Shown: one piece after another, positions 13,769-44,664 of the stretch | How the letters are laid out: each line of letters starts with the position of its first letter | Numbering within the stretch: position 1 is the stretch's first letter | Assembly: GCA_034003725.1 (NCBI GenBank) | Contig: JAVEYB010000010.1 | Coordinates: 44,654-108,653 of the forward strand | From: Candidatus Zixiibacteriota bacterium | Lineage (GTDB): Bacteria; Zixibacteria; MSB-5A5; GN15; FEB-12 | DNA: 64,000 bases | Direction of reading: 5' to 3' | Made by a program: the position numbers and the translations under genes | Notes under the pieces: model-generated | What the model saw: the letters and a program-made list of their open reading frames with translations, nothing else | Told to the model about the DNA's origin: nothing | Databases searched by the model: none

Positions 13769-15744
<1,976 letters not shown>

Positions 15745-15810
15745 TTCCGTCCTCCTCAATGGACAAGTTATTGATTGTTATAGGGTTATCTTTTGTTTTA
15801 CAATCCCCTG

Positions 15811-15837
15811 TTAGCACTCATCACAATCGAGTGCTAA
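15811..15837 (-). promoter_or_regulatory. CIRCE operator (HrcA binding site)
   Basis: ttagcactc-atcacaatc-gagtgctaa is a perfect match to the TTAGCACTC-N9-GAGTGCTAA consensus. It lies between the promoter and groES. Confidence 0.95.
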
Positions 15838-15845
15838 CAACCGTT

Positions 15846-15874
15846 ATTGTAGTGTTTAACGTCGGAGCTGTCAA
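15846..15874 (-). promoter_or_regulatory. Sigma-70-type promoter of groESL
   Basis: The minus strand reads TTGACA (15874..15869), a 17-nt spacer, then TACAAT (15851..15846). It sits immediately upstream of CIRCE. Confidence 0.8.
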
Positions 15875-15991
15875 GAAGTTTCCGGAAAAAACGGGATACC
15901 AAAGCGGGCTTTGGGGGGCGTTGAGGAGAGGGCACCGTTCTCTCGCCTAACTGATTGAAATATAGCGGGCTATATGGATACTACGATTGAT

Positions 15992-16756
15992 TCAGTTCGA
16001 GTCGGCGATGATGCGCAGGCCCTCGAGGGTGAGGGTCGGTTCGATGCGGCTGATGTAGCGGGAGTGTTTCTCGATTCCGTTGGCAAGGCCGCCGGTGGCG
16101 ATCACGGTTGGATTCGTGAAGCCGGACTCTTCGATAATCTTCTCCAGAATAAAGTCAACCTGACCGAGGGTACCGTAGAAGAGGCCCGATTCGAGCGCCT
16201 GTTTAGTGGAGCGGCCGACGGCGCGTTCGGGTTCGACCATGCGGATATCAAACAGGCGGGCGGCCCGGCGGGCCAGTTCGGCCATCGAGGTTTCCGGTCC
16301 CGGAACGAGGACGCCGCCGATATAGACGCCGTCGACCGTGACGACATCGAAATTGATCGCCGTTCCGAAGTCCACGACAATCGCCGGCCCGCCGAACAGC
16401 ACGTACGCGGCGGAGGCGTTGGCGATCCGGTCGGCTCCGACCTGGCGGGGGTTGTCGATATCGATTGTCACGGGCAGCTTGATATCGACGGACACCCAGA
16501 GCGGATCGACTTTGAAAAACCGGGGGCACATGCGCGCGTAGACAGTCGACAGGCGAGGAACAACCGAGCTGATGACGATCCGATCGATTTCGTCAGGGTC
16601 GATTTTCATCCGGTCGAGCAAACCGGTGATAAACAGCCCGGCCTCGTCGGAAGTCAAATGGACCGATGACGCGACGCGGAAGTGGTCGCGCAGGCGGTCT
16701 TTGTCAAACACGCCCACAACCGTGTTGGTGTTGCCGATATCGATGGCGAGCAGCAT
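15992..16756 (-). CDS. coaX: Type III pantothenate kinase
   Basis: MLLAIDIGNTNTVVGVF...VVDFGTAINFDVV...IATGGLA, which are the ASKHA-fold CoaX motifs. Confidence 0.9.
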   Translation of the reverse strand: MLLAIDIGNTNTVVGVFDKDRLRDHFRVASSVHLTSDEAGLFITGLLDRMKIDPDEIDRIVISSVVPRLSTVYARMCPRFFKVDPLWVSVDIKLPVTIDIDNPRQVGADRIANASAAYVLFGGPAIVVDFGTAINFDVVTVDGVYIGGVLVPGPETSMAELARRAARLFDIRMVEPERAVGRSTKQALESGLFYGTLGQVDFILEKIIEESGFTNPTVIATGGLANGIEKHSRYISRIEPTLTLEGLRIIADSN

Positions 16757-16768
16757 ATGGTCAGGTGG

Positions 16769-17077
16769 TCAGTTGACCGGCGGACCGGGCTGGCCGCCAT
16801 AGGCGCCGGGGCCTCCGGCCTGACGGGCGAGTTCGATGTTGATTTTCTGCGCCGACGAGTACGCGTCGTATATGCCGTAGATAAACATGATCGGCGTGGT
16901 GATGAAGCCGATGATGACGAGCATGAGAATCCACGAAATGGCGTAGACGATGATGAACACGATGCCTTTGGCGATCTGGCCGTTGTAAATCTGGCCGAGC
17001 CCCATCCAGAAAAACGACAGGACGGCAGCAAGGCCCGGATTTTTATAGAAGATCGGCGGCGGTCCCTGGTAATGCAT
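16769..17077 (-). CDS. Small integral membrane protein (TM2-like), Gly/Pro-rich tail
   Basis: Two or three hydrophobic helices (LAAVLSFFWMGLGQIYNGQIAKGIVFIIVYAISWILMLVIIGFITTPIMFIYGIY). It lies 12 nt upstream of coaX on the same strand. Confidence 0.6.
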   Translation of the reverse strand: MHYQGPPPIFYKNPGLAAVLSFFWMGLGQIYNGQIAKGIVFIIVYAISWILMLVIIGFITTPIMFIYGIYDAYSSAQKINIELARQAGGPGAYGGQPGPPVN

Positions 17078-17201
17078 AATCCCTCCTGATTAGTCCCGAC
17101 GGTTCAGTACAGTATACTATGACGGGGCGCAGGAATTCAACCCGTTTCTTGGGAGGGTGAGACAGGCGGAGCCGGTCATGCCCCGAGTGCCGACATCCAG
17201 C

Positions 17202-17431
17202 AGGATCGGTCAGTGGCGTCTTTCGGGAGGGGCGATATTACGCGAGGGTGCGTGGTGCACGGGGACGTACACCACGCACATTTTTCACCCACCCAGCACG
17301 GGAAGCACACCACGCACATTATTCACCCATCCAGCACGGGAAGCACACCACGCACATTTTTCACCCATCCAGCACGGGGACGTACACCACGCACGGATAG
17401 AGAACTGCGGGTTCGAGGACGGACCCGCCCT
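17202..17431. repeat. Long direct repeat DR1 (230 bp) with an internal 38-39 bp minisatellite (17258..17394, ~3.6 units)
   Basis: aggatcggtcagtgg...gggtgcgtggtgcacggggacgtacaccacgcacatttttcacccacccag, followed by two extra units (cacgggaagcacaccacgcacatt[a/t]ttcacccatccag), then ...ggatagag..gcgggttcgaggacggacccgccct. It matches 18043..18195 apart from 77 extra bp, which equals two units. Confidence 0.9.
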
Positions 17432-17499
17432 GCGGGGACGGCTGATTTCAATTACCGTCGGATATTGCATCGTTGCGTTCTTCACGATACATTTTGTGC

Positions 17500-17928
17500 A
17501 TGGAGTTTCGAGTATTGACCGCCGATTCATACGAGTCCGTTATCGCGCTGTGGAAACGGGCCGGGTTGGGCTTTCGTCCGAACGGTCGCGACAAGCGCGA
17601 GCGGATTGTGGCTGAGATGGGCGATCCGAATTGCCGGTATTTCGGACTGTTCGACGGGGAACGGATGGTCGGGGTGGTGATCGCGAACTTCACGTATCGA
17701 CGGGCATGGATAGAACGGATGGCGGTTGATCCGGACTATCGCGGCCGGGGGCTGGCCGGAATGCTGATTGCCGAAGCGGAGCGCTTCTTGAACGACAAGG
17801 GGGCGCTGGTGATTTCGGCGTTGATCGAAGACACCAACGATCCATCGATTCGTGCGTTTTCAAAGGCAGGGTATGTGGTGATGGATGAGATCAAGTATTA
17901 TTCGAAGCGACCGCACCCGGAGGCGTGA
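17500..17928 (+). CDS. GNAT-family N-acetyltransferase
   Basis: MEFRVLTADSYESVIALWKRAGL...IERMAVDPDYRGRGLAGMLIAEAERFLNDKGA contains the acetyl-CoA motif A (R-G-R-G-L-A). The start is moved to the ATG at 17500, because the ORF-track start lies inside upstream repeat-flanking DNA. Confidence 0.85.
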   Translation: MEFRVLTADSYESVIALWKRAGLGFRPNGRDKRERIVAEMGDPNCRYFGLFDGERMVGVVIANFTYRRAWIERMAVDPDYRGRGLAGMLIAEAERFLNDKGALVISALIEDTNDPSIRAFSKAGYVVMDEIKYYSKRPHPEA

Positions 17929-17943
17929 GGGACCATCTCGGCA

Positions 17944-17972
17944 GTGTTGTCAGGCGACTCGCCTGACAACAC
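17944..17972. repeat. REP-like palindrome (gtgttgtcaggcga-c-tcgcctgacaacac)
   Basis: A 29-nt sequence identical to its reverse complement except at the central base. It is related to the tgtcaggcg....cgcctgaca hairpins at 40026..40051, 40570..40595 and 40622..40645. Confidence 0.85.
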
Positions 17973-18042
17973 GATGTGTCGGGCCGCAAGCTTGTCCTGA
18001 GCGCAGCCGAAGGGCAGTCTCGACCTGATGCCGGTAACCGGA

Positions 18043-18195
18043 AGGATCGGTCAGTGGGATCTTTCGGGTGGGGCGATGTTACGCGAGGGTGCGTGGTGCA
18101 CGGGGACGTACACCACGCACATTTTTCACCCACCCAGCAGGGGGACGTGCACCACGTACGGATAGAGATGGCGGGTTCGAGGACGGACCCGCCCT
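18043..18195. repeat. Long direct repeat DR2 (153 bp), short allele of DR1
   Basis: Collinear with 17202..17431 but with only ~1.6 minisatellite units (18099..18159). Confidence 0.9.
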
Positions 18196-18254
18196 ACAGA
18201 CTATCGGACATATTGGAGATTGATGCTTCCACCGCGATGGTTCGGAGGTCAACT

Positions 18255-19076
18255 ATGACTGTCCTACATGAGTTGGAGATTCATTTCCCATATTTGTTCC
18301 TGTCGGATTCATTTCATGTGACTGAATCGCAGTCAGGAGTTGACTCCGATGAGTTCGTAATAATACGAGGACGGCACGCGGCCTTTCGTTTCTCGTTTGA
18401 GGACGGCCAAGCATTCCTCGCTGTAGCTTCCGTGTACGGATCTCCATGGTTTGACATCCGAGACGTCCTGGCGGCGTTGTGCGAGGACTTTGATCCCTTG
18501 GGAATTGTGGACTTCCAAGATCTGTCAAATGTGCTACAGCCATCCATTGGACGAATTGAGAAAGCGTTCTCCATTGGGTCTCTCGGTAGTACGCAGAGGC
18601 TTCTGTCGAGCCGTAAGGAGCGCAGGCTATACCGTCGCCCGGAGATTGTTGCGACTGATACTCGTTGTGGGGCCTTGACTAGCGAAGACTTAGAGGAATT
18701 TGTCAGCGATCAATTTGGATTCTTGTTGTTGAATAATCGATACAAGGTCTCGCATGTCGGACACGACTTCACCCAACTCATTCTCAAGGGGTCAAATCTG
18801 AAGCTTTCATTCAGGATTGAGCGGGGTGAAGAGATGATCTTGGGGAGCCGCTTGCACTTCGGCACGTGGTTCGGTCTTGAGTGGATCCGTAGATTATATG
18901 AAAGTAATTTTGATAACCTTAGTCTTCAGACCTTCATGCAATGGAGACCAGTCTTGAGCCGGGAAATCGACCGGATTGAACTACTCTTCAGCAAGCAGAA
19001 TGTATCAAAGACCGTTAAGGCATTGAGGAGGATGCGGGACGAGTATGAGGTGAGTCTCACCATCAGGTCCGAATAA
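18255..19076 (+). CDS. Hypothetical protein with an internal two-fold domain duplication
   Basis: I prefer the ATG at 18255 with GGAGG at 18244..18248. The ORF-track N-terminus (17976-) is translated repeat DNA. The two halves resemble each other: FPYLFLSDSFHVTE..DEFVIIRGRHAAFRFSFEDGQAFLAV..GSPWFDIRDVL versus FGFLLLNNRYKVSH..FTQLILKGSNLKLSFRIERGEEMILG..GTWFGLEWIRRL. I recognise no family. Confidence 0.55.
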   Translation: MTVLHELEIHFPYLFLSDSFHVTESQSGVDSDEFVIIRGRHAAFRFSFEDGQAFLAVASVYGSPWFDIRDVLAALCEDFDPLGIVDFQDLSNVLQPSIGRIEKAFSIGSLGSTQRLLSSRKERRLYRRPEIVATDTRCGALTSEDLEEFVSDQFGFLLLNNRYKVSHVGHDFTQLILKGSNLKLSFRIERGEEMILGSRLHFGTWFGLEWIRRLYESNFDNLSLQTFMQWRPVLSREIDRIELLFSKQNVSKTVKALRRMRDEYEVSLTIRSE

Positions 19077-19248
19077 GGACGTCGCTGCTATGAGCTGCTT
19101 GCCATGGCGAGCGACTTCAACATGATTGTCGAGATTGGATGAACATGGGTACCATGCCGACGAGGGTAAGGGCCTGCTCCAGTTGCCCGGATGAGTCGCT
19201 GGGTAATGGCTTGATTGTGAAAGTGAGACTTGTCGTAGCAACACTTCT

Positions 19249-19839
19249 GTGGACGGTGTGGACCCCGGGCCAGGGTACATCTGGGTTGGCACTGAGCTGA
19301 TCGCTCCTTATACTGGGAAGGTCATCAACCCCGACGAACAACGCATTATCCCGAATGCGAGCGCGGAATTCGACGAGCTATATGACTACTGGTCCAGACA
19401 GTTCGACAAGTTTTTTGAAGCTGGCGGCTCGAGATTAATCAGCGTCACCTATGGAGATCCCGTGTATTTTAGGACAATGAGTCTCTCAAACAATCCGGAG
19501 TTGGGACTTGACTTCAAGGAAATGCCGAATCTCACAATCGGTCGCGGTGCTTACAAATACTCAATAGTCCATGGGACTATTGCAGAAAATCAATTCATCG
19601 GCAATGCTCTGTGGGCGAAGATAGGAAAGAAATTTGGTTGGTCGTTGTTCAGCCTGCGAAACGGTGCAGGATTCGCACAAATCATCCGAGGGACGTCAAG
19701 CCTTGATTATCTATCTTGGAAGACGTTCTTTCTACCAATGGGTTGGGATGATCCGGTTGATCAGTTTTTTATCAGGATGGGCTATCACGACAACTTTGCC
19801 AACCCATACTTCCCCTTCGGCACGATTGGAGGTAGGTAA
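19249..19839 (+). CDS. Hypothetical; C-terminal half resembles a polymorphic-toxin type-44-like domain (orphan module)
   Basis: FIGNALWAKIGKKFGWSLFSLRNGAGFAQIIRGTS...GWDDPVDQFFIRMGY follows the GNxxYGxxGxxxG...AGxAQ...GDDPxDQxxIxxG pattern. I recall that pattern from type-44 polymorphic toxin domains; this is from memory and unverified. GTG start with no clear RBS. See the findings for a possible frameshifted N-terminus. Confidence 0.45.
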   Translation: MDGVDPGPGYIWVGTELIAPYTGKVINPDEQRIIPNASAEFDELYDYWSRQFDKFFEAGGSRLISVTYGDPVYFRTMSLSNNPELGLDFKEMPNLTIGRGAYKYSIVHGTIAENQFIGNALWAKIGKKFGWSLFSLRNGAGFAQIIRGTSSLDYLSWKTFFLPMGWDDPVDQFFIRMGYHDNFANPYFPFGTIGGR

Positions 19840-20532
19840 GTGACTGACACGAGGTATTTGCTGCTTCTCTCTGTAGCTCTTGCCGTGATTATAGCTGCAT
19901 GCGCCGGTCGCGGCAAGCCCGTAGCAACAGTCTCCAATGACCGTTTTACCGTAACAGCTTTCGAACCGCGCAGCGTTGCAACCGTCCCGGATGTGCTCAA
20001 TGTGGAGGTAACCAGGCCGATGTCGAAAAGGGTGCTTCAACAAATAGGTACCCGGCCGGCATTTGTTCTGCGGCTTGACGAGGACGGGACACTGTTTATC
20101 AGAACGTACTATGAGATCGACAATCGCACACCGGAGTACTTTGTTGCCCATCTCCCCAGCTGGTCAGGGGAGACCTATGTTGCAAACTCAAACTATCCCT
20201 GTCCGAGGAAAGAGATGCTAGATTCGGTCGCCATCCCTGATGGCTACGCCACGCTGTGGTCGTTGAACTGCGACCCAGAAATAGTTTTTCTTCGCGCCTC
20301 GCGATTGCAGCGTGAGTCTGACTGGCGCGACTCACAATGGTATGGGATCAGGGCGCATTTCGTAGACGCGAGGGATGCGAGATTTGTCCGCCAAGACTCT
20401 ACGGGTCTGAGCATGCGAGTCGACTGGAACGGGGCGTCCAGTTCATCGATGTATAAGTTTGACTTAGATACATTAGACTTCCTACCCGAAGTCCTCGCGG
20501 GGAGCGGAACGGAGACGATGTATGGCCAGTGA
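19840..20532 (+). CDS. Putative lipoprotein (unknown function), translationally coupled to the upstream gene
   Basis: The GTG at 19840 directly abuts the TAA at 19837..19839. The N-terminus MTDTRYLLLLSVALAVIIAAC has a lipobox-like IAAC. Confidence 0.6.
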   Translation: MTDTRYLLLLSVALAVIIAACAGRGKPVATVSNDRFTVTAFEPRSVATVPDVLNVEVTRPMSKRVLQQIGTRPAFVLRLDEDGTLFIRTYYEIDNRTPEYFVAHLPSWSGETYVANSNYPCPRKEMLDSVAIPDGYATLWSLNCDPEIVFLRASRLQRESDWRDSQWYGIRAHFVDARDARFVRQDSTGLSMRVDWNGASSSSMYKFDLDTLDFLPEVLAGSGTETMYGQ

Positions 20533-21192
20533 ATCCAAACTTGCTTGCACCATCTTGCTTGTTGTTTTTGCCGCCTTGTCCAGTGCGACACATGCAAATG
20601 ACTGGCCAATGTACCAGTGTGATGCGCAGAACACCGGCTACAATCCGGGGTCAACCATCCAGCCCCCACTGGAGATGGCTTGGAGTAAGTAGCTGTACCA
20701 CTTGCAGCTTCATCCTGTTACCGTCTACGACGGATACGCAATGGTGACCAACGCCCTGAGTTGGAACGACTCCACGAATCTCGCCGTGTGTTTGAACGCG
20801 CGCACCGGTGCGCTGCTCTGGGCGGACACGATAACTGCGGAGGCCTACTCTCTCGGGCAAGCTGCGGCTGGATATGGTTTGTGGTACGTCCAGGTAGCCA
20901 ATCACGCCGGCTCCTGGGTCGCGGCATATGACATTGAGACCGGGAATCTGGCCTGGGTCGACCCTGTGCGGACGCAGGGAAGATGGCCAGTTGGACCGAC
21001 TCTGTACAAAGATCGATTGGTGTATTTAAGCGGCCTAACGGAGGCTGCGAAGCTACTGATGCTCTGACCGGAGAGTCACAGTGGTTTGTCTTTCTGACCG
21101 AAATCTGGAGCTGGGCCGGTTGGTTCACCCAACCGGCCTTGATCATATTCTATAGCTGCACTGTTACAGGATCGCTTCGAATGCTTTCTTGA
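20522..21192 (+). pseudogene. Decayed PQQ-like beta-propeller (BamB-like repeat) gene: in-frame TAG, frameshift, truncated
   Basis: The ATG at 20522 overlaps the upstream stop. It encodes MASESKLACTILLVVFAALSSATHANDWPMYQCDAQNTGYNPG...EMAWSK, then a TAG at 20690..20692. The same frame continues LYHLQLHPVTVYDGYAMV...CLNARTGALLWAD...AAYDIETGNLAWV to 21067. A further propeller-like piece (ATDALTGESQWFV) continues in another frame to 21192, overlapping the 3' end of the convergent thioredoxin-like gene. Confidence 0.6.
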
Positions 21193-21739
21193 ACTCCTCG
21201 TAGCTTCGCGGTCCGAGGAACTGGGCCACGACATTGCCGTTTTTGTCGAGGAAAAACGTGGTCGGGACGCCGGTGCCTTTGTAATTGGCGAAGGTATCGC
21301 GGTCGGCCATGAGCATCTGCCACTGCATATCGTTTTCGAGGGCGAACTTCCGCACGGTTTCGGGGTTGTCTTTCCAGTCCAGCGCCAGCCCGAGAATCTC
21401 GACGCCTTTGTCTCGATACTCGCTGTAGAGTTGTTTGAAGGCCGGGATCTCGTGGCGGCAGGGCGGACACCAGGTACCCCAGAAATTGAGGACCACCGGT
21501 TGTTTGCCGACCCATTCGGAGGACTGGCGGAGGGTGCCACGGAGATCGTAGGCGGCAAACGCCGGCACCGACTGCGAGGCGGATTGGCCGGCGGTCGCGG
21601 CGACCGCGCCGGACTGATTCGCGGCCTGTGATGAGTTCTGGTTATCGCCGCTGCACGAGTATACGGTTAATGCGGCCATTAGCAGTGCGACAGCGTGAAC
21701 GGACTTTCTGAGCATGAATCGGATCCTTGTCATTCCCAA
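21164..21739 (-). CDS. TlpA/ResA-like thiol:disulfide oxidoreductase (thioredoxin fold), exported
   Basis: Signal peptide or lipoprotein-like N-terminus. Active site FWGTWCPPCRHEIP. Confidence 0.85.
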   Translation of the reverse strand: MGMTRIRFMLRKSVHAVALLMAALTVYSCSGDNQNSSQAANQSGAVAATAGQSASQSVPAFAAYDLRGTLRQSSEWVGKQPVVLNFWGTWCPPCRHEIPAFKQLYSEYRDKGVEILGLALDWKDNPETVRKFALENDMQWQMLMADRDTFANYKGTGVPTTFFLDKNGNVVAQFLGPRSYEEFKKAFEAIL

Positions 21740-21757
21740 TGGCGTGCGACGACGGGC

Positions 21758-22285
21758 TTACTTGCCGTCGCCCTGTTTCTTTGCGTCAACTTCATACTGT
21801 CTCGTGGAGACATAGTCGAGAGCCTGAATAAACCGTTCGGCGGGCTGGTAACCCGGAAGCGGACCGATCCGCTGTCCTTCGGGCGAGATGAACCAGAACG
21901 CGGGGTAACCGCGGACGTTGAATTCCGAAACGGCGAGTTGTTTCTGCGAGATTTTGTAGCCCTCGATCTCCAGCATATCATCGGAGTCGCCCCAGACCTT
22001 CACCGGGACGAACTTCTCGTTTATCCTCGCCACGACGGCGGAGTCTTTGAAGGTCTCCTTATCCATTTTTTTGCACCAACTGCACCATGAGGCGGTGAAG
22101 TCGACCAGGACGTGTTTGGACTCCTGTTTGGCTTTGACGAGACCGTCGGGGAAGCTGAGCCAGACGATCGAGTCGGCTTTAGCCGAATCAGCTTTCTTAC
22201 TTTCCGCCTTGTCCTGGGCCACAGCGGGCAGGGCGAGCGCTGCAAGTATCAGGGCGCTGCCCAGAATGCGGGGCCATCTGTTCAT
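21758..22285 (-). CDS. Thioredoxin-fold protein (Thioredoxin_7/DUF255-like), exported
   Basis: Signal peptide MNRWPRILGSALILAALALPAVA. Motif VDFTASWCSWCKKMDKETF. The ATG at 22285 has GGTGGAG upstream; the ORF track starts at 22300. Confidence 0.8.
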   Translation of the reverse strand: MNRWPRILGSALILAALALPAVAQDKAESKKADSAKADSIVWLSFPDGLVKAKQESKHVLVDFTASWCSWCKKMDKETFKDSAVVARINEKFVPVKVWGDSDDMLEIEGYKISQKQLAVSEFNVRGYPAFWFISPEGQRIGPLPGYQPAERFIQALDYVSTRQYEVDAKKQGDGK

Positions 22286-22362
22286 ACGAAACTCCACCAT
22301 TGGTAGTCCTCTTCGTGCATTACCTATTAGACGGAATTACACAGAAATCGCTTCGCACAAAA

Positions 22363-25300
22363 TCACGATTCCCGGCCGGAGAGCGGCCGAAGGTAAGCCG
22401 CGGAATCACCTAACATCTCCTTGAGTCGGTTGACGAGCTCGAAATCCGCCCGAACGGAATATTTGTTCGATCGAATGTACACTTCAGAACCGTTTTCACG
22501 GGCGGCCAGAAGCACCGGGGAGTTGCCCCGGTAGTCTTCGAGCGAAGCTAACGCCTTATCTATCATAGATTCGGGACAATCCGGCTCGACCTTTATAACG
22601 AGTTGACAATTAAATCGTTCCGCGAGGTTCTGCAGCGGGAGGACCTCGCTGACAATGATCTTGGGGGCCTCTCCCTCACGGGTCGAAACTCGTCCGGTGG
22701 CCAGGATGATCTGATCTATTTCGATGTGCTCCTTCACGTTATCAAAGACTTTGGAGAACAGAAGCAGGCCCACTTGTCCGGTGAAATCCTGAATGGTGGC
22801 GAACGCCATCATATTGCCCTTCTTGTCGGGCATCTTTCTGACCTCGACAACAATGCCGCCGGCAGTCACCTCTCGTCCGTCGGCGACCGCCGCGAGCGAT
22901 TGATTGGTGGCGGTGGTGAAACAGGACAGTTCGTCGCGGAACTTGTCGAGGGGGTGACCGGAGACGTAGAACCCGAGCATATCGCGCTCGCGGTTGAGCA
23001 ATTCGGTGGTAGACCATTCGGCGATATCGGGGAGTTTGGGGGCGACGCGGGCAACCTCGCCGCCGGCGGCGGCGAAGAGATCGTGGGTGCTTTGCTGGGC
23101 GAAAACGCGGTGCCCGTACTCGAGCATGGTTTCGACAGCGGCCAGTTTCTGAGCCCGGCCGCCGCCCAGTGAATCACACGCGCCGGCCGCGATTAACGAC
23201 TCCAGCGTGCGGCGGTTCATCATCCGAGGCGGTATGCGGCCGATGAGCCCGTCGAGCCCGACAAACGGGCCGTTTTTCTCTCGTTCTTCGACAATCGCAC
23301 GGGCCGGACCCTCGCCGACATTTTTCACCGCCAGCAGGCCGAACCTGATGGTACCGTCGACTACGTTGAAATCTATCATGGATTCGTTTACATCGGGCGG
23401 CAGAACGGTGATGGCGAGCCGTCGGCATTCCTCGAGGAAGATATTGATGCGGTCCGAGTCGGTTATTTCGGAGGTCATCAGCGCGGCCATGAACTCTTTC
23501 GGGTAGTGCACCTTGAGCCACGCGGTCTGGTAGGCGACGTACGCATAGCAGGTGGAGTGCGCTTTGTTGAAGCCGTACCGGGCGAAGGTTTCGATCTGAT
23601 GGAAGATGTCCTCGGCGGTTTTCTGTTCGATGCCGTTTTTCGCCGAGCCTTCGATGAAGGTCTTCTTCTGTTCGGCCATGAGGGCGGCGATTTTCTTGCC
23701 CATCGCCTTGCGCAGGAGGTCGGCGCCGCCGAGCGAATAACCGGCCATCTTGTTGGCAATCTGGAGCACCTGTTCCTGGAAGACGATCACGCCGTAGGTG
23801 CTGCCGAGGATCTTCTCCAGAATCGGGTGCAGGAAATGGACTTTCTCTTCGCCTTTCTTGCAGCTGATATAGGTGTCAATCATGCCGGAATCCAGCGGAC
23901 CCGGCCGATACAGAGCGTTCATGACGGTGAGGTCGGTGAAGGTGGTCGGCTCGAGTTTGCGGAGGTATTCGCGCATGCCGGGGGATTCAAACTGGAAGAT
24001 GCCGATCGTCTCGCCGCGCGCGAAAAGTTTGTAGACTTTGGGATCGTCGAGCCCGATGGCATCGAGATCGATTTCCGTACCGGTGTTTTCGCGGATCATG
24101 CGCAGGGCGTCATCGATAACGGTGAGCGTGCGCAGTCCGAGGAAGTCCATTTTGAGCAGGCCGATTTCTTCGACCATCTTCATATCGTACTGGGTCGTGA
24201 TTTCGTCCTTGGACCCTTTGAAAAGCGGCACGTAGTTGGTGAGGGCCGACGGCGCGATCACCACGCCGGCGGCGTGGGTCGAGCAATGTCGCGCGAGACC
24301 TTCGAGCGTGCGGGAGTACCGCAGCAGCCGTTCGACACGCGGGTCGGCCTTGGCCAGATCGGACAACTCGGTTACCTGTGCGATGGCTTTTTCGAGATTC
24401 ATGTCGGGGGCCATGGGGATCATCTTGGCGATTTTGTCCACCTCGCCATAGGGGATGCCGAGCACCCGGCCGACATCGCGCACCACCGCCCGGGCCGCCA
24501 TGGTTCCGAAGGTGATAATCTGGCAGACGTTATCTTTGCCGTACTTGTCGATGACGTACTTGATGATTTTGTCGCGGCCGCGATCGGCGAAGTCGATATC
24601 GATATCCGGCATGGAAATACGTTCGGGATTCAAAAAGCGCTCGAACAGCAGTTCAAATGCGATTGGATCGACATTGGTGATGCCGAGGGCGTAGGAGACC
24701 AGCGATCCGGCGGCGGAGCCGCGCCCCGGGCCGACCGGTATTTTCTGGGAGCGGGCGTAGTCGCAAAAATCCTTTACGATCAGGAAGTAACCCGCATAGC
24801 CCATCTGTTTGATCACGCCAAGCTCGTATTCGAGGCGCTGGGTAATTTCGTCGGTAATCTCCGTGTATCGTTCGGTGAGGCCGCGTTCGCAGAGATGGCG
24901 AAGGTATGTGTCCGGGTCGACAAATGACGTCGGAATCGGGAAAACCGGGAGTTTCAGTTTTCCCATTTCGATTTCGACGTTGCATTCTTCGGCGATCCGA
25001 ATCGTATTTTCCATCGCGGGCTTGAAGTCGCCAAACACCTTCTCCATTTCCTCTTCGGATTTGAAATAAATCTGGTCGGTGTTGTAGCGCATGCGCTTCT
25101 CGTCATCGATCTGCTTGCCGGTCTGAATGCACAGCAGGGCGTCGTGCGCTTCGTAGTCCTCGCGGCGGAGATAATGACAGTCATTGGTGACGACCAGTGG
25201 AATGCCGGTCTCGCGGGAGATCAAATCCATTTTCGGGATGGCCTCCGTCTCCTGGGGCAGGCCGTGATTCTGGATTTCCAGGTAGAAGTTGCCGGGGCCG

Positions 25301-25809
25301 AAGATATCGGCAAGCTCGCGGGCGGAGGCGACCGCCATGTCGGCTTTTCCCTGCTGGAGGTACCAGTTGACCTCGCCCTTGAGGCAGGCCGAGGTGCCGA
25401 TAAGCCCTTCGGCGTGCTGGCGCAGGACGCTTTTGTCGATTCGCGGGCGATGGTAGAAACCGTCGAGATAGGCAGTCGAGCACAGCTTCATCAGGTTTTG
25501 ATAGCCGACGTTGTTTTTGGCGAGCAGGATCAGATGGAACCCGCCGTCGGGGAACTCGCTGGACGGTTTTTTGTCAAACCGGGTGGTGCCGGCGCAGTAG
25601 GCCTCGACTCCGATAATCGGTTTGATCCCGGCTTTGGTGGCTTTTTTGTAAAACTCGACCGCGCCGAACATGTTGCCGTGGTCGGTGATCGCGAGCGCGG
25701 GCATGTTGAGTTCTTTGGCGCGTTCGATGACTTCATCGAGCCGACAGGCGCCATCGAGCAGCGAATACTGGCTGTGAGTATGGAGGTGAACGAAGTTGGC
25801 GAATCTCAT
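22363..25809 (-). CDS. dnaE: DNA polymerase III alpha subunit
   Basis: PHP domain start MRFANFVHLHTHSQYSLLDGA. Polymerase core (GRGSAAGSLVSYALGITNVDP, FERFLNPERISMPDIDIDF). 1148 aa. Confidence 0.97.
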   Translation of the reverse strand: MRFANFVHLHTHSQYSLLDGACRLDEVIERAKELNMPALAITDHGNMFGAVEFYKKATKAGIKPIIGVEAYCAGTTRFDKKPSSEFPDGGFHLILLAKNNVGYQNLMKLCSTAYLDGFYHRPRIDKSVLRQHAEGLIGTSACLKGEVNWYLQQGKADMAVASARELADIFGPGNFYLEIQNHGLPQETEAIPKMDLISRETGIPLVVTNDCHYLRREDYEAHDALLCIQTGKQIDDEKRMRYNTDQIYFKSEEEMEKVFGDFKPAMENTIRIAEECNVEIEMGKLKLPVFPIPTSFVDPDTYLRHLCERGLTERYTEITDEITQRLEYELGVIKQMGYAGYFLIVKDFCDYARSQKIPVGPGRGSAAGSLVSYALGITNVDPIAFELLFERFLNPERISMPDIDIDFADRGRDKIIKYVIDKYGKDNVCQIITFGTMAARAVVRDVGRVLGIPYGEVDKIAKMIPMAPDMNLEKAIAQVTELSDLAKADPRVERLLRYSRTLEGLARHCSTHAAGVVIAPSALTNYVPLFKGSKDEITTQYDMKMVEEIGLLKMDFLGLRTLTVIDDALRMIRENTGTEIDLDAIGLDDPKVYKLFARGETIGIFQFESPGMREYLRKLEPTTFTDLTVMNALYRPGPLDSGMIDTYISCKKGEEKVHFLHPILEKILGSTYGVIVFQEQVLQIANKMAGYSLGGADLLRKAMGKKIAALMAEQKKTFIEGSAKNGIEQKTAEDIFHQIETFARYGFNKAHSTCYAYVAYQTAWLKVHYPKEFMAALMTSEITDSDRINIFLEECRRLAITVLPPDVNESMIDFNVVDGTIRFGLLAVKNVGEGPARAIVEEREKNGPFVGLDGLIGRIPPRMMNRRTLESLIAAGACDSLGGGRAQKLAAVETMLEYGHRVFAQQSTHDLFAAAGGEVARVAPKLPDIAEWSTTELLNRERDMLGFYVSGHPLDKFRDELSCFTTATNQSLAAVADGREVTAGGIVVEVRKMPDKKGNMMAFATIQDFTGQVGLLLFSKVFDNVKEHIEIDQIILATGRVSTREGEAPKIIVSEVLPLQNLAERFNCQLVIKVEPDCPESMIDKALASLEDYRGNSPVLLAARENGSEVYIRSNKYSVRADFELVNRLKEMLGDSAAYLRPLSGRES

Positions 25810-26017
25810 GGCTGTACAAGTGCGCGGTTACGGGTTCAATTCGAACTCTAGATATCAAGATTGGTGCGGATCAGCAATGACTTTTTCGTCGGCGCGATAA
25901 TATTGCTCCAGTGTATTGCGCAACAAGGCGTTGGTTGTGTGGATATGTGGGTGCCGCTTCAGTCTGTGTGGTTCGAACCGGCAGGAGCAGCTTAATCACG
26001 GCAGTGGCACCATTCGA

Positions 26018-44574: not shown

Positions 44575-44664
44575 AGAGATATGTCCAGTATCCTAGTAAT
44601 GTATCGATCAATTTGGCGGTTTGTTCACATCCTGCCGAGGCAGAGTGGAGTTTGGCCCTGCGGG

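Follow-up and report, generated by a model that had tools for sequence, protein, structure and literature searches.

A probable orphan Ntox44-type Rhs toxin module and its candidate immunity lipoprotein in a variable island of a Candidatus Zixiibacteriota genome

The toxin-lipoprotein gene pair

The window analysed in this work is a stretch of 64,000 nucleotides (nt) from the assembly GCA_034003725.1 of a Candidatus Zixiibacteriota bacterium (contig JAVEYB010000010.1, forward-strand positions 44,654 to 108,653). It harbors two adjacent genes, the first encoding a protein of 196 amino acids (aa) with toxin-like motifs and the second a predicted lipoprotein of 230 aa. A first-pass annotation, made from the sequence, had noted a resemblance of the former to the polymorphic toxin domain Ntox44, had placed the latter in the position of an immunity gene, and had proposed a frameshifted signal sequence upstream of the toxin. 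The three open reading frames (ORFs) that it listed (19139..19300, 19249..19839, and 19840..20532) all exist. The main features of the pair are the following:

19249..19839, plus strand: putative orphan Rhs-type C-terminal toxin module, with an N-terminal extension of ~95 aa followed by the Ntox44 core
19534..19788, plus strand: Ntox44 core, residues 96-180 of the toxin ORF (Pfam PF15607 and motifs)
19828..19832, plus strand: GGAGG within the 3' end of the toxin ORF, read as the Shine-Dalgarno sequence of the lipoprotein gene, with a 7-nt spacer to the GTG at 19840
19840..20532, plus strand: predicted lipoprotein of 230 aa and candidate immunity protein, with its GTG directly after the TAA of the toxin

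The two ORFs share one reading frame, with a single TAA between them. The toxin ORF starts with GTG, and its stop-to-stop frame opens 14 codons earlier, at 19207.

In the following, the labels G, L, P, X, and C stand for genomes, loci, phmmer matches, sequencing runs, and contigs, respectively. The source genome (G000) is assembled in 35 contigs, with a completeness of 99.54%; a window position corresponds to the position on contig C10 minus 44653. Proteins were searched both with a word-indexed search of 5.8 billion proteins, near the lengths of the queries, and with an exhaustive HMMER (phmmer) search of 1.84 billion representative proteins. The evidence from sequencing runs comes from assembled contigs rather than from raw reads, so that rare variants could stay hidden; X1 is the possible source run (depth 29), while X3, X4, and X5 are other samples from one other study (depth 4-5).

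The 196-aa ORF as an Ntox44 module

Probing Pfam with the toxin ORF retrieved Ntox44 (PF15607) with an E-value of 1.4e-4 and 22.7 bits, covering profile positions 24-100 of 104; in a six-frame scan of the whole genome the score was 23.6 bits, or 24 bits when the neighbouring pieces in frame were included. The phmmer search retrieved 13 proteins at E<=1e-3, the query itself included. The best match, P0003 (2251 aa), aligns through its residues 2082-2248 with residues 4-180 of the query (E 1.3e-30, 47% identity); ahead of this tip, about 250 residues from the C-terminus, lies the end of an Rhs core (…YFGARYYD…DPDG). Moreover, residues 2750-2912 of P0008 (2917 aa) align with residues 10-181 of the toxin, and P0004 (200 aa) aligns over residues 2-180 (E 2.9e-15). 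Pfam recognized Ntox44 in 10 of the 12 non-self matches, in nine of them above the gathering cut-off of 24 bits and in one more at 19.2 bits. Some of these relatives harbor additional domains, namely RHS_repeat in P0013, DUF6443 in P0008, and PG_binding_1 in P0014; the stand-alone Ntox44 proteins among the matches, such as P0004, are 90-280 aa long.

Two further matches, P0005 and P0006, are Ig-repeat and ankyrin proteins in which 6-7 short stretches were matched, and they were rejected as spurious. Weak matches to the toxin (E 0.017-0.09) also came from three frames of 150 aa in G026, G006, and G012, which were not retained; that of G026, a membrane protein encoded beside a sigma-factor-like gene, was dismissed as chance.

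The table of the founding survey (PMC3482391) lists DxK, GNxxxG, and DxxxD as the motifs of the Ntox44 family, with no immunity family given in that entry. The toxin ORF harbors D-F-K (corresponding to DxK), G118-N119, and D167-x-P169-x-D171 (corresponding to DxxxD), and the peptide motifs quoted in the first-pass annotation were found in it. In an alignment of nine sequences, it retains all ten invariant columns (G98, G118, N119, G130, Q144, D167, P169, D171, I175, and G178). It also has an insertion of five residues ahead of the DDP motif and a tail of 16 aa, and its N-terminal extension opens with a DPGxGY motif common only to P0003, P0004, P0008, and the metagenome locus L029.

The AlphaFold2 model of the toxin (predicted local distance difference test, pLDDT, 66.6; predicted template modelling score, pTM, 0.67) is mostly helical, with seven helices and a short hairpin at residues 103-113; of an Ntox44 domain, an all-alpha fold would be expected. 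Foldseek retrieved no PDB entry at E<=1e-3 (best E 1.5), the wide fold search with VIA no chain at Z>=5 (best Z 4.1), and the word-indexed search with the toxin returned the query alone. Ntox44 is rare in the phylum: three of 285 genomes harbor it at E<=1e-4, the module of the window lying just outside with 1.5e-4.

Once the homologues are considered, the predicted relationship to Ntox44 lies far beyond chance. The resemblance noted in the first-pass annotation is thus borne out by the Pfam score together with the phmmer match to Ntox44 relatives and, judging from its sequence, the 196-aa ORF encodes an Ntox44-type module such as those at the C-termini of polymorphic toxins.

Absence of an Rhs body and of a T6SS sheath gene from the assembled contigs

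From codon 2-4 onward the toxin ORF is homologous to Rhs tips, the tblastn matches starting at 19252-19258, and upstream of 19252 no match to the homologues was found in any frame. When P0003, P0004, P0008, and P0013 were compared with the whole genome by tblastn, they retrieved the module of the window and two Rhs core-tail orphans on contig C19, and nothing else. Across the 35 contigs, RHS_repeat gave no match at E<=0.1 and VipB/TssC, the sheath family of type VI secretion systems (T6SS), no match at all; Rhs_assc_core gave two matches, both on C19 and none in the window. A full-length toxin sharing the region upstream of the module was found in none of these contigs.

Furthermore, no Shine-Dalgarno sequence precedes the GTG of the toxin at 19249, whereas the lipoprotein gene and the gene upstream of the toxin (ORF-273, see below) each have a GGAGG at 6-7 nt. 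The toxin ORF has no signal peptide and no trafficking domain recognizable with Pfam.

The start of the homology at the ORF's own start, the missing Shine-Dalgarno sequence, and a genome without RHS repeats and TssC suggest that the toxin is an orphan tip, in agreement with the first-pass annotation, which had called it an orphan cassette. The lack of any core remnant, in turn, would mean that no Rhs body of the 35 contigs could deliver it and that the usual tip-swapping recombination would find no homology.

The two orphans on C19 are of the classical type: they are ORFs of 284 and 273 aa, each starting within the tail of the Rhs core and leading into a tip of another kind. They form an array (locus L020, 6477-10018, minus strand); both tips are unlike that of the window and have no family assigned, and after each orphan comes a gene for a small protein (131 and 148 aa, respectively) whose N-terminus is signal-like. 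After the array lies a lipoprotein-like ORF of 217 aa and upstream of it a protein of 885 aa, whose C-terminal tail we take to resemble a sorting domain of the type IX secretion system (T9SS). No full-length Rhs was found near the array.

The lipoprotein gene and the genes following related tips

The N-terminus of the lipoprotein, inspected by eye, has an n-region with an Arg (M-T-D-T-R), a hydrophobic stretch of 15 residues with a Kyte-Doolittle (KD) value of 3.02, and I-A-A-C21. Lipoprotein signals consist of a charged n-region, a hydrophobic h-region, and a lipobox with the consensus [LVI][ASTVI][GAS]C, and the IAAC lipobox proposed in the first-pass annotation is consistent with it.

Searches with the lipoprotein retrieved little: the word-indexed search returned the query alone, Pfam and NCBIfam gave no family, and the 60 related genomes yielded no significant relative, the best non-self match (E 0.02) having stops within it; in the Atlas, its rows were unnamed or below the naming bar. 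Its structure, predicted from a three-row alignment, has a pLDDT of 42.1 and is too poor for fold searching. Two co-folding runs, in which the toxin (alignment A1) was paired with the mature part of the lipoprotein (residues 22-230), both scored 0.00, a value that has no weight either way as to whether the two bind.

The genes located after other Ntox44 tips were then compared. In all four close loci (the window, L029, G011, and G031), the protein encoded after the tip has a hydrophobic N-terminus ending in a Cys. In L029, a metagenome contig of 2465 bp, the end of an Rhs core (…DPMGL) runs within about 20 residues into a tip of the same type (35% identity, residues 2-180), followed by a lipoprotein of 238 aa (…LTGC) and by a second Rhs core-tail orphan. 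In G011, which belongs to the same taxonomic family, the tip is truncated, retaining the part that corresponds to residues 92-178 (E 1.2e-8), and is overlapped by an ORF of 250 aa whose hydrophobic N-terminus ends in a Cys; the sequence of L030 is that of the G011 locus. In G031, an Rhs of 2828 aa with an Ntox44 tip (25.4 bits) is followed by a lipoprotein-like protein of 152 aa. The arrangement described in the first-pass annotation, i.e., a lipoprotein gene in the immunity position with its GTG abutting the toxin stop, hence has counterparts at related loci.

The proteins from the window, G011, and L029 were compared in pairs by BLASTP; the matches concern the first ~118 residues and are all co-linear, and each is a single comparison:

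Window lipoprotein and G011 protein: E 0.028
Window lipoprotein and L029 protein: E 0.21
G011 protein and L029 protein: E 3e-4

The alignment (hhalign) of a G011 and L029 profile with the window lipoprotein had a probability of 49% and an E-value of 1.7e-4 over 85 columns, and in the three-way alignment the Cys is conserved, as are an A-T-x-P motif and a number of aromatic residues. These data point to a likely homology of the three proteins and, together with the recurrent position of their genes, to the lipoprotein of the window being the likely immunity protein.

A tRNA-Ser(GGA) gene, the kind of site at which mobile DNA typically lands, is found about 215 nt upstream of the truncated tip of G011 (L003, G011:C3 1175-1761). 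The fourth Ntox44 locus of the phylum, G250, carries the domain at the end of a non-Rhs protein of 486 aa (L041, G250:C22 1393-2853, minus strand). An H-E-x-x-H motif occurs in the N-terminal part of this protein, in a region that presumably resembles DUF4157 of contractile injection system cargo.

The proteins encoded after two distant tips, those of L034 (3335-3634) and L037 (1229-1606), share an S-P-N-G-N…V-Y-L motif and may form another immunity family; one of the source genomes is a Bacillota and the other belongs to a candidate phylum. A synteny shared through a PQQ-like gene after the G031 pair was also considered and rejected, since tblastn between the loci gave nothing beyond E 0.7.

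The island and its other genes

The pair is embedded in a short region that differs from its surroundings:

18194..21114, strand not applicable: strain-variable island of 2.9 kb with a low guanine plus cytosine (GC) content, holding the toxin pair, ORF-273, and a PQQ-like fragment
18255..19076, plus strand: ORF-273, two tandem copies of a domain of ~130 aa, cytoplasmic; GGAGG 6 nt before the ATG at 18255, which is taken to be its real start
20522..21067, plus strand: fragment of a PQQ/BamB-like beta-propeller, interrupted in frame by a TAG at 20690..20692; its N-terminus is signal-like

At 0.519, the GC content of the island is below that of the genome (0.585) and falls within the lowest 2.3% when 3642 genome windows of equal length are ranked; this agrees with the AT-richness remarked on in the first-pass annotation. 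The island is single-copy in the genome. Two genomes of the same genus, G001 and G002, match the window at 14015..17153, 17498..17926 (a GNAT gene), and 21114..25820; between 17929 and 21113, the only DNA matches in either are short dispersed repeats. From the GNAT gene to a thioredoxin-like gene, G001 has 3.1 kb of unrelated membrane/cytochrome-like genes. Moreover, in one X4 contig position 18193 is followed, after 23 other letters, by 21115, so that 2921 bases are missing; its depth is 12.6, compared with ~4.8 inside the island, and just right of the island the depth of X3-X5 is 18-28, compared with 4-5 inside. This contig, one in number and with a likeness of 90%, hints that a related strain lacks the island.

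The two halves of ORF-273 match each other (E 7e-10). Pfam and NCBIfam gave no family for this protein, and the word-indexed search returned the query alone. In the Atlas, its halves led to unnamed clusters of 127-166 aa and to a weak structural row below the naming bar, TriTu (an immunity family); as a lead, ORF-273 may be a leftover immunity-type gene.

The PQQ-like fragment overlaps the end of the lipoprotein gene by 11 nt, is split into two pieces in one frame, and ends after about 180 codons. PQQ_2 was recognized in 20702..21064 with an E-value of 4.3e-6, its 27.0 bits lying below the cut-off of 27.6, and the TAG at 20690..20692 is unchanged in the contigs of X1, X3, X4, and X5. The fragment is probably a decaying gene.

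Interpretation of the pair

In our opinion, the locus is probably best explained as an orphan Ntox44-type Rhs C-terminal toxin that has lost the Rhs shell and the trafficking part and that lies, with a probable immunity lipoprotein, in a decaying variable island. According to this model, the toxin would be undeliverable and at most weakly translated, i.e., a silent orphan cassette. The lipoprotein gene, endowed with its own strong GGAGG, would be the cognate immunity gene and probably the selected part of the pair; its product would protect the cell from neighbours firing complete Rhs-Ntox44 toxins. The surroundings of the pair, a low-GC variable island beside dispersed repeats with duplicated-domain and broken PQQ-like genes, fit a decaying, horizontally acquired toxin locus.

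The site of action deserves attention. Given the lipoprotein-type signals on the proteins encoded in the immunity position in this clade, its toxins would probably meet the immunity protein, and perhaps the target, outside the cytoplasm. An exported lipoprotein suggests an action outside the cytoplasm, and the fusion to PG_binding_1 in P0014 points in the same direction. In the relevant part of a review (PMC13577199), TseR of Yersinia pseudotuberculosis, a PAAR-Ntox44 effector, is described as a cation-dependent ribonuclease (RNase), and the label "predicted RNase" for Ntox44 recurs in passages of other papers.

Several points weigh against this explanation. An RNase activity of Ntox44 would predict a cytoplasmic immunity protein rather than a lipoprotein. 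Taken alone, the Pfam score of the toxin ORF stays below the cut-off, and the final G of GNxxxG is replaced by Ala, as it is in P0003. The similarity of the lipoprotein to the G011 and L029 proteins is weak and partly due to the signal peptide; the G031 protein is shorter and stands outside the three co-linear ones. In G250, the gene following the tip encodes a basic protein of 71 aa without a hydrophobic N-terminus. Of six distant loci from other phyla, three (L036, L037, and L039) have a hydrophobic N-terminus downstream; the 99-aa downstream protein of L034 has none under the start rule applied, L035 runs off its contig, and L038 has no downstream ORF within 400 nt. Furthermore, repeat-rich Rhs genes may drop out of short-read assemblies, so that the lack of a full-length Rhs holds for the 35 assembled contigs. 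The module has neither a full rhs gene upstream nor a core piece, unlike classical orphan rhs-CT modules, and the stretch was not found among RNA runs.

Alternative explanations

The lipoprotein could be an unrelated neighbour, the true immunity gene having been lost or being ORF-273. This would accommodate an immunity-position protein without a family or significant relatives, and it would suit the RNase activity reported for Ntox44 in the review cited above, which would need a cytoplasmic immunity protein; ORF-273 is cytoplasmic and has the weak immunity-like lead in the Atlas. However, ORF-273 lies upstream of the toxin, 172 nt away, which is not the usual immunity position, whereas the lipoprotein gene begins right at the toxin stop, its Shine-Dalgarno sequence lying inside the toxin ORF. 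The N-terminally anchored, Cys-bearing proteins found in the same position at the four close loci, three of them co-linear, also argue against a chance neighbour, and we regard this alternative as unlikely.

If instead the lipoprotein is the immunity protein, a broader and rather doubtful idea is that the Ntox44 clade with the DPGxGY extension acts in the envelope, not as a cytoplasmic RNase, and is neutralised by an undescribed family of beta-rich immunity lipoproteins of ~230-250 aa. It draws on the lipoprotein-type genes at the four close loci, on the anchored proteins at three of the six distant ones, and on the peptidoglycan-binding fusion of P0014. If this were true, the orphan of the window would owe its retention chiefly to a role as immunity gene, guarding against the Rhs toxins of neighbours.

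A functional stand-alone pair, with the 196-aa protein translated from its GTG, appears quite improbable. Such a pair could work as a toxin-antitoxin-like (TA-like), or addiction, module stabilising the island, or the toxin could be a cargo effector of another machine. The ORF is indeed intact, with all the conserved residues; stand-alone Ntox44 proteins of comparable kind, e.g., P0004, exist among the matches, G250 carries the domain on a non-Rhs protein, and orphan rhs modules acting in a TA-like manner are described in parts of the literature (PMC7043789). Yet the GTG lacks the Shine-Dalgarno sequence that the neighbouring genes have, the toxin has no signal peptide or recognizable trafficking domain in a genome with no TssC match, and P0004 begins with V and may be a fragment. 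Moreover, TA-like neutralisation of a toxin in the cytoplasm would be out of reach for a lipoprotein that is exported.

The upstream 53-codon ORF

The first-pass annotation had further proposed that a small ORF overlapping the 5' end of the toxin supplies a signal sequence, to be fused to it by a one-base slip in the run CCCCGGG. Both the ORF and the run exist:

19139..19300, plus strand: 53-codon ORF in another frame, judged spurious, with no Pfam match and no similarity in the related loci, homologous proteins, and genome compared below

The contigs of all four runs (X1, X3, X4, and X5) carry the CCCCGGG run at 19263..19269 with 0 differences and 0 gaps, in agreement with the frame as given, and no insertions or deletions are listed for the run contigs across 18214..21200. 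The upstream frame (68 codons from stop to stop) had no match at E<0.01 in ten related loci, in seven homologous proteins, or in its own genome. ORFs of at least 40 aa number 75 in the surrounding 8 kb, wrong-frame ones being common.

Sites of -1 slippage follow the pattern X_XXY_YYZ. In the upstream frame, the run reads C_CCG_GGC and is formally a slippery heptamer; neither a stimulatory structure nor conservation was found. The downstream RNA (96 nt from 19255) has a z of +0.64, and 144 of 200 shuffles fold at least as well.

A stand-alone secreted toxin, with its signal in the upstream ORF joined through an assembly indel or -1 frameshifting, is thus largely refuted already and most improbable: the frames do overlap and differ by -1, the heptamer fits the slippery pattern, and a stretch of moderate hydrophobicity (KD 1.87) occurs in the upstream ORF, but this stretch is short and starts at residue 26, the CCCCGGG run is unchanged in the contigs of all four sequencing runs, the upstream frame is unmatched at E<0.01 in the sequences compared, the downstream RNA is no more stable than shuffled sequences, and the homologues set the domain boundary at the annotated start, which in L029 is directly preceded by the Rhs core. 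On these sequence comparisons, we regard the 53-codon ORF as a chance ORF.

Comparison with known systems

Orphan Rhs modules are treated in several papers (PMC3150448, PMC3967940, PMC7043789, and PMC10539506). As far as the enterobacterial orphan rhs-CT/immunity modules are described in the relevant parts of two of them (PMC3150448 and PMC3967940), the orphan tip of the window shares with them an Rhs-homologous toxin tip without its delivery part, a small gene at once downstream in the immunity position, and the location in a variable, compositionally atypical stretch. Unlike them, it has no full rhs gene upstream or elsewhere in the assembly and no core fragment for recombination; the predicted module is therefore different from the textbook orphan in lacking both an Rhs core remnant and a parent rhs gene. 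The C19 orphans of the same genome keep a core piece, like the classical modules.

With respect to Ntox44 as outlined in the founding table (PMC3482391), the toxin shares the DxK, GN, and DxxxD motifs and the location at Rhs tips, its model being largely helical, and it differs in its score just under the cut-off, in the ~95-aa N-terminal extension, in the 5-residue insertion, and in the 16-aa tail. That table lists no immunity family for Ntox44, and here the gene in the immunity position encodes a predicted lipoprotein.

The candidate immunity gene of the window, with its lipobox signal peptide just after the toxin gene, also resembles another group. T6SS effectors that act on the envelope are countered by immunity proteins, e.g., those of the Tsi and Tli types, that are periplasmic or are lipoproteins facing the periplasm. 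No relation of sequence or fold between these and the window lipoprotein could be shown, the model of the latter having a pLDDT of 42.

The locus would be a clear example of an Rhs toxin tip that has become detached, in an uncultured lineage that has been little studied, and it supplies candidate immunity partners for Ntox44. If the lipoprotein does confer immunity, the assumed site of action of the Ntox44 family needs re-examination; otherwise, the locus would be a routine one, i.e., a decaying toxin/immunity cassette in a variable island.

Non-coding signals and repeats around the island

The Rfam scan of 16800..21300 gave no family at E<=0.1, and the promoter and terminator scans remained at the level of shuffled sequences (4 against 2.8 expected and 2 against 2.3 expected, respectively).

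The GNAT acetyltransferase gene (17473..17928) lies between two direct repeats of about 170-240 nt, at 17188-17431 and 18029-18195. The repeats share 91% identity over 115 nt, consist of 38-nt tandem units, and end in an identical GC-rich piece of 25 nt, which has seven exact copies in the genome; pieces of 30-40 nt of these repeats occur dozens of times across G001. Rfam has no family for them, and over them the depth of metagenome contigs rises to 136-396, compared with 29 nearby. The left edge of the island coincides exactly with the end of the right-hand repeat.

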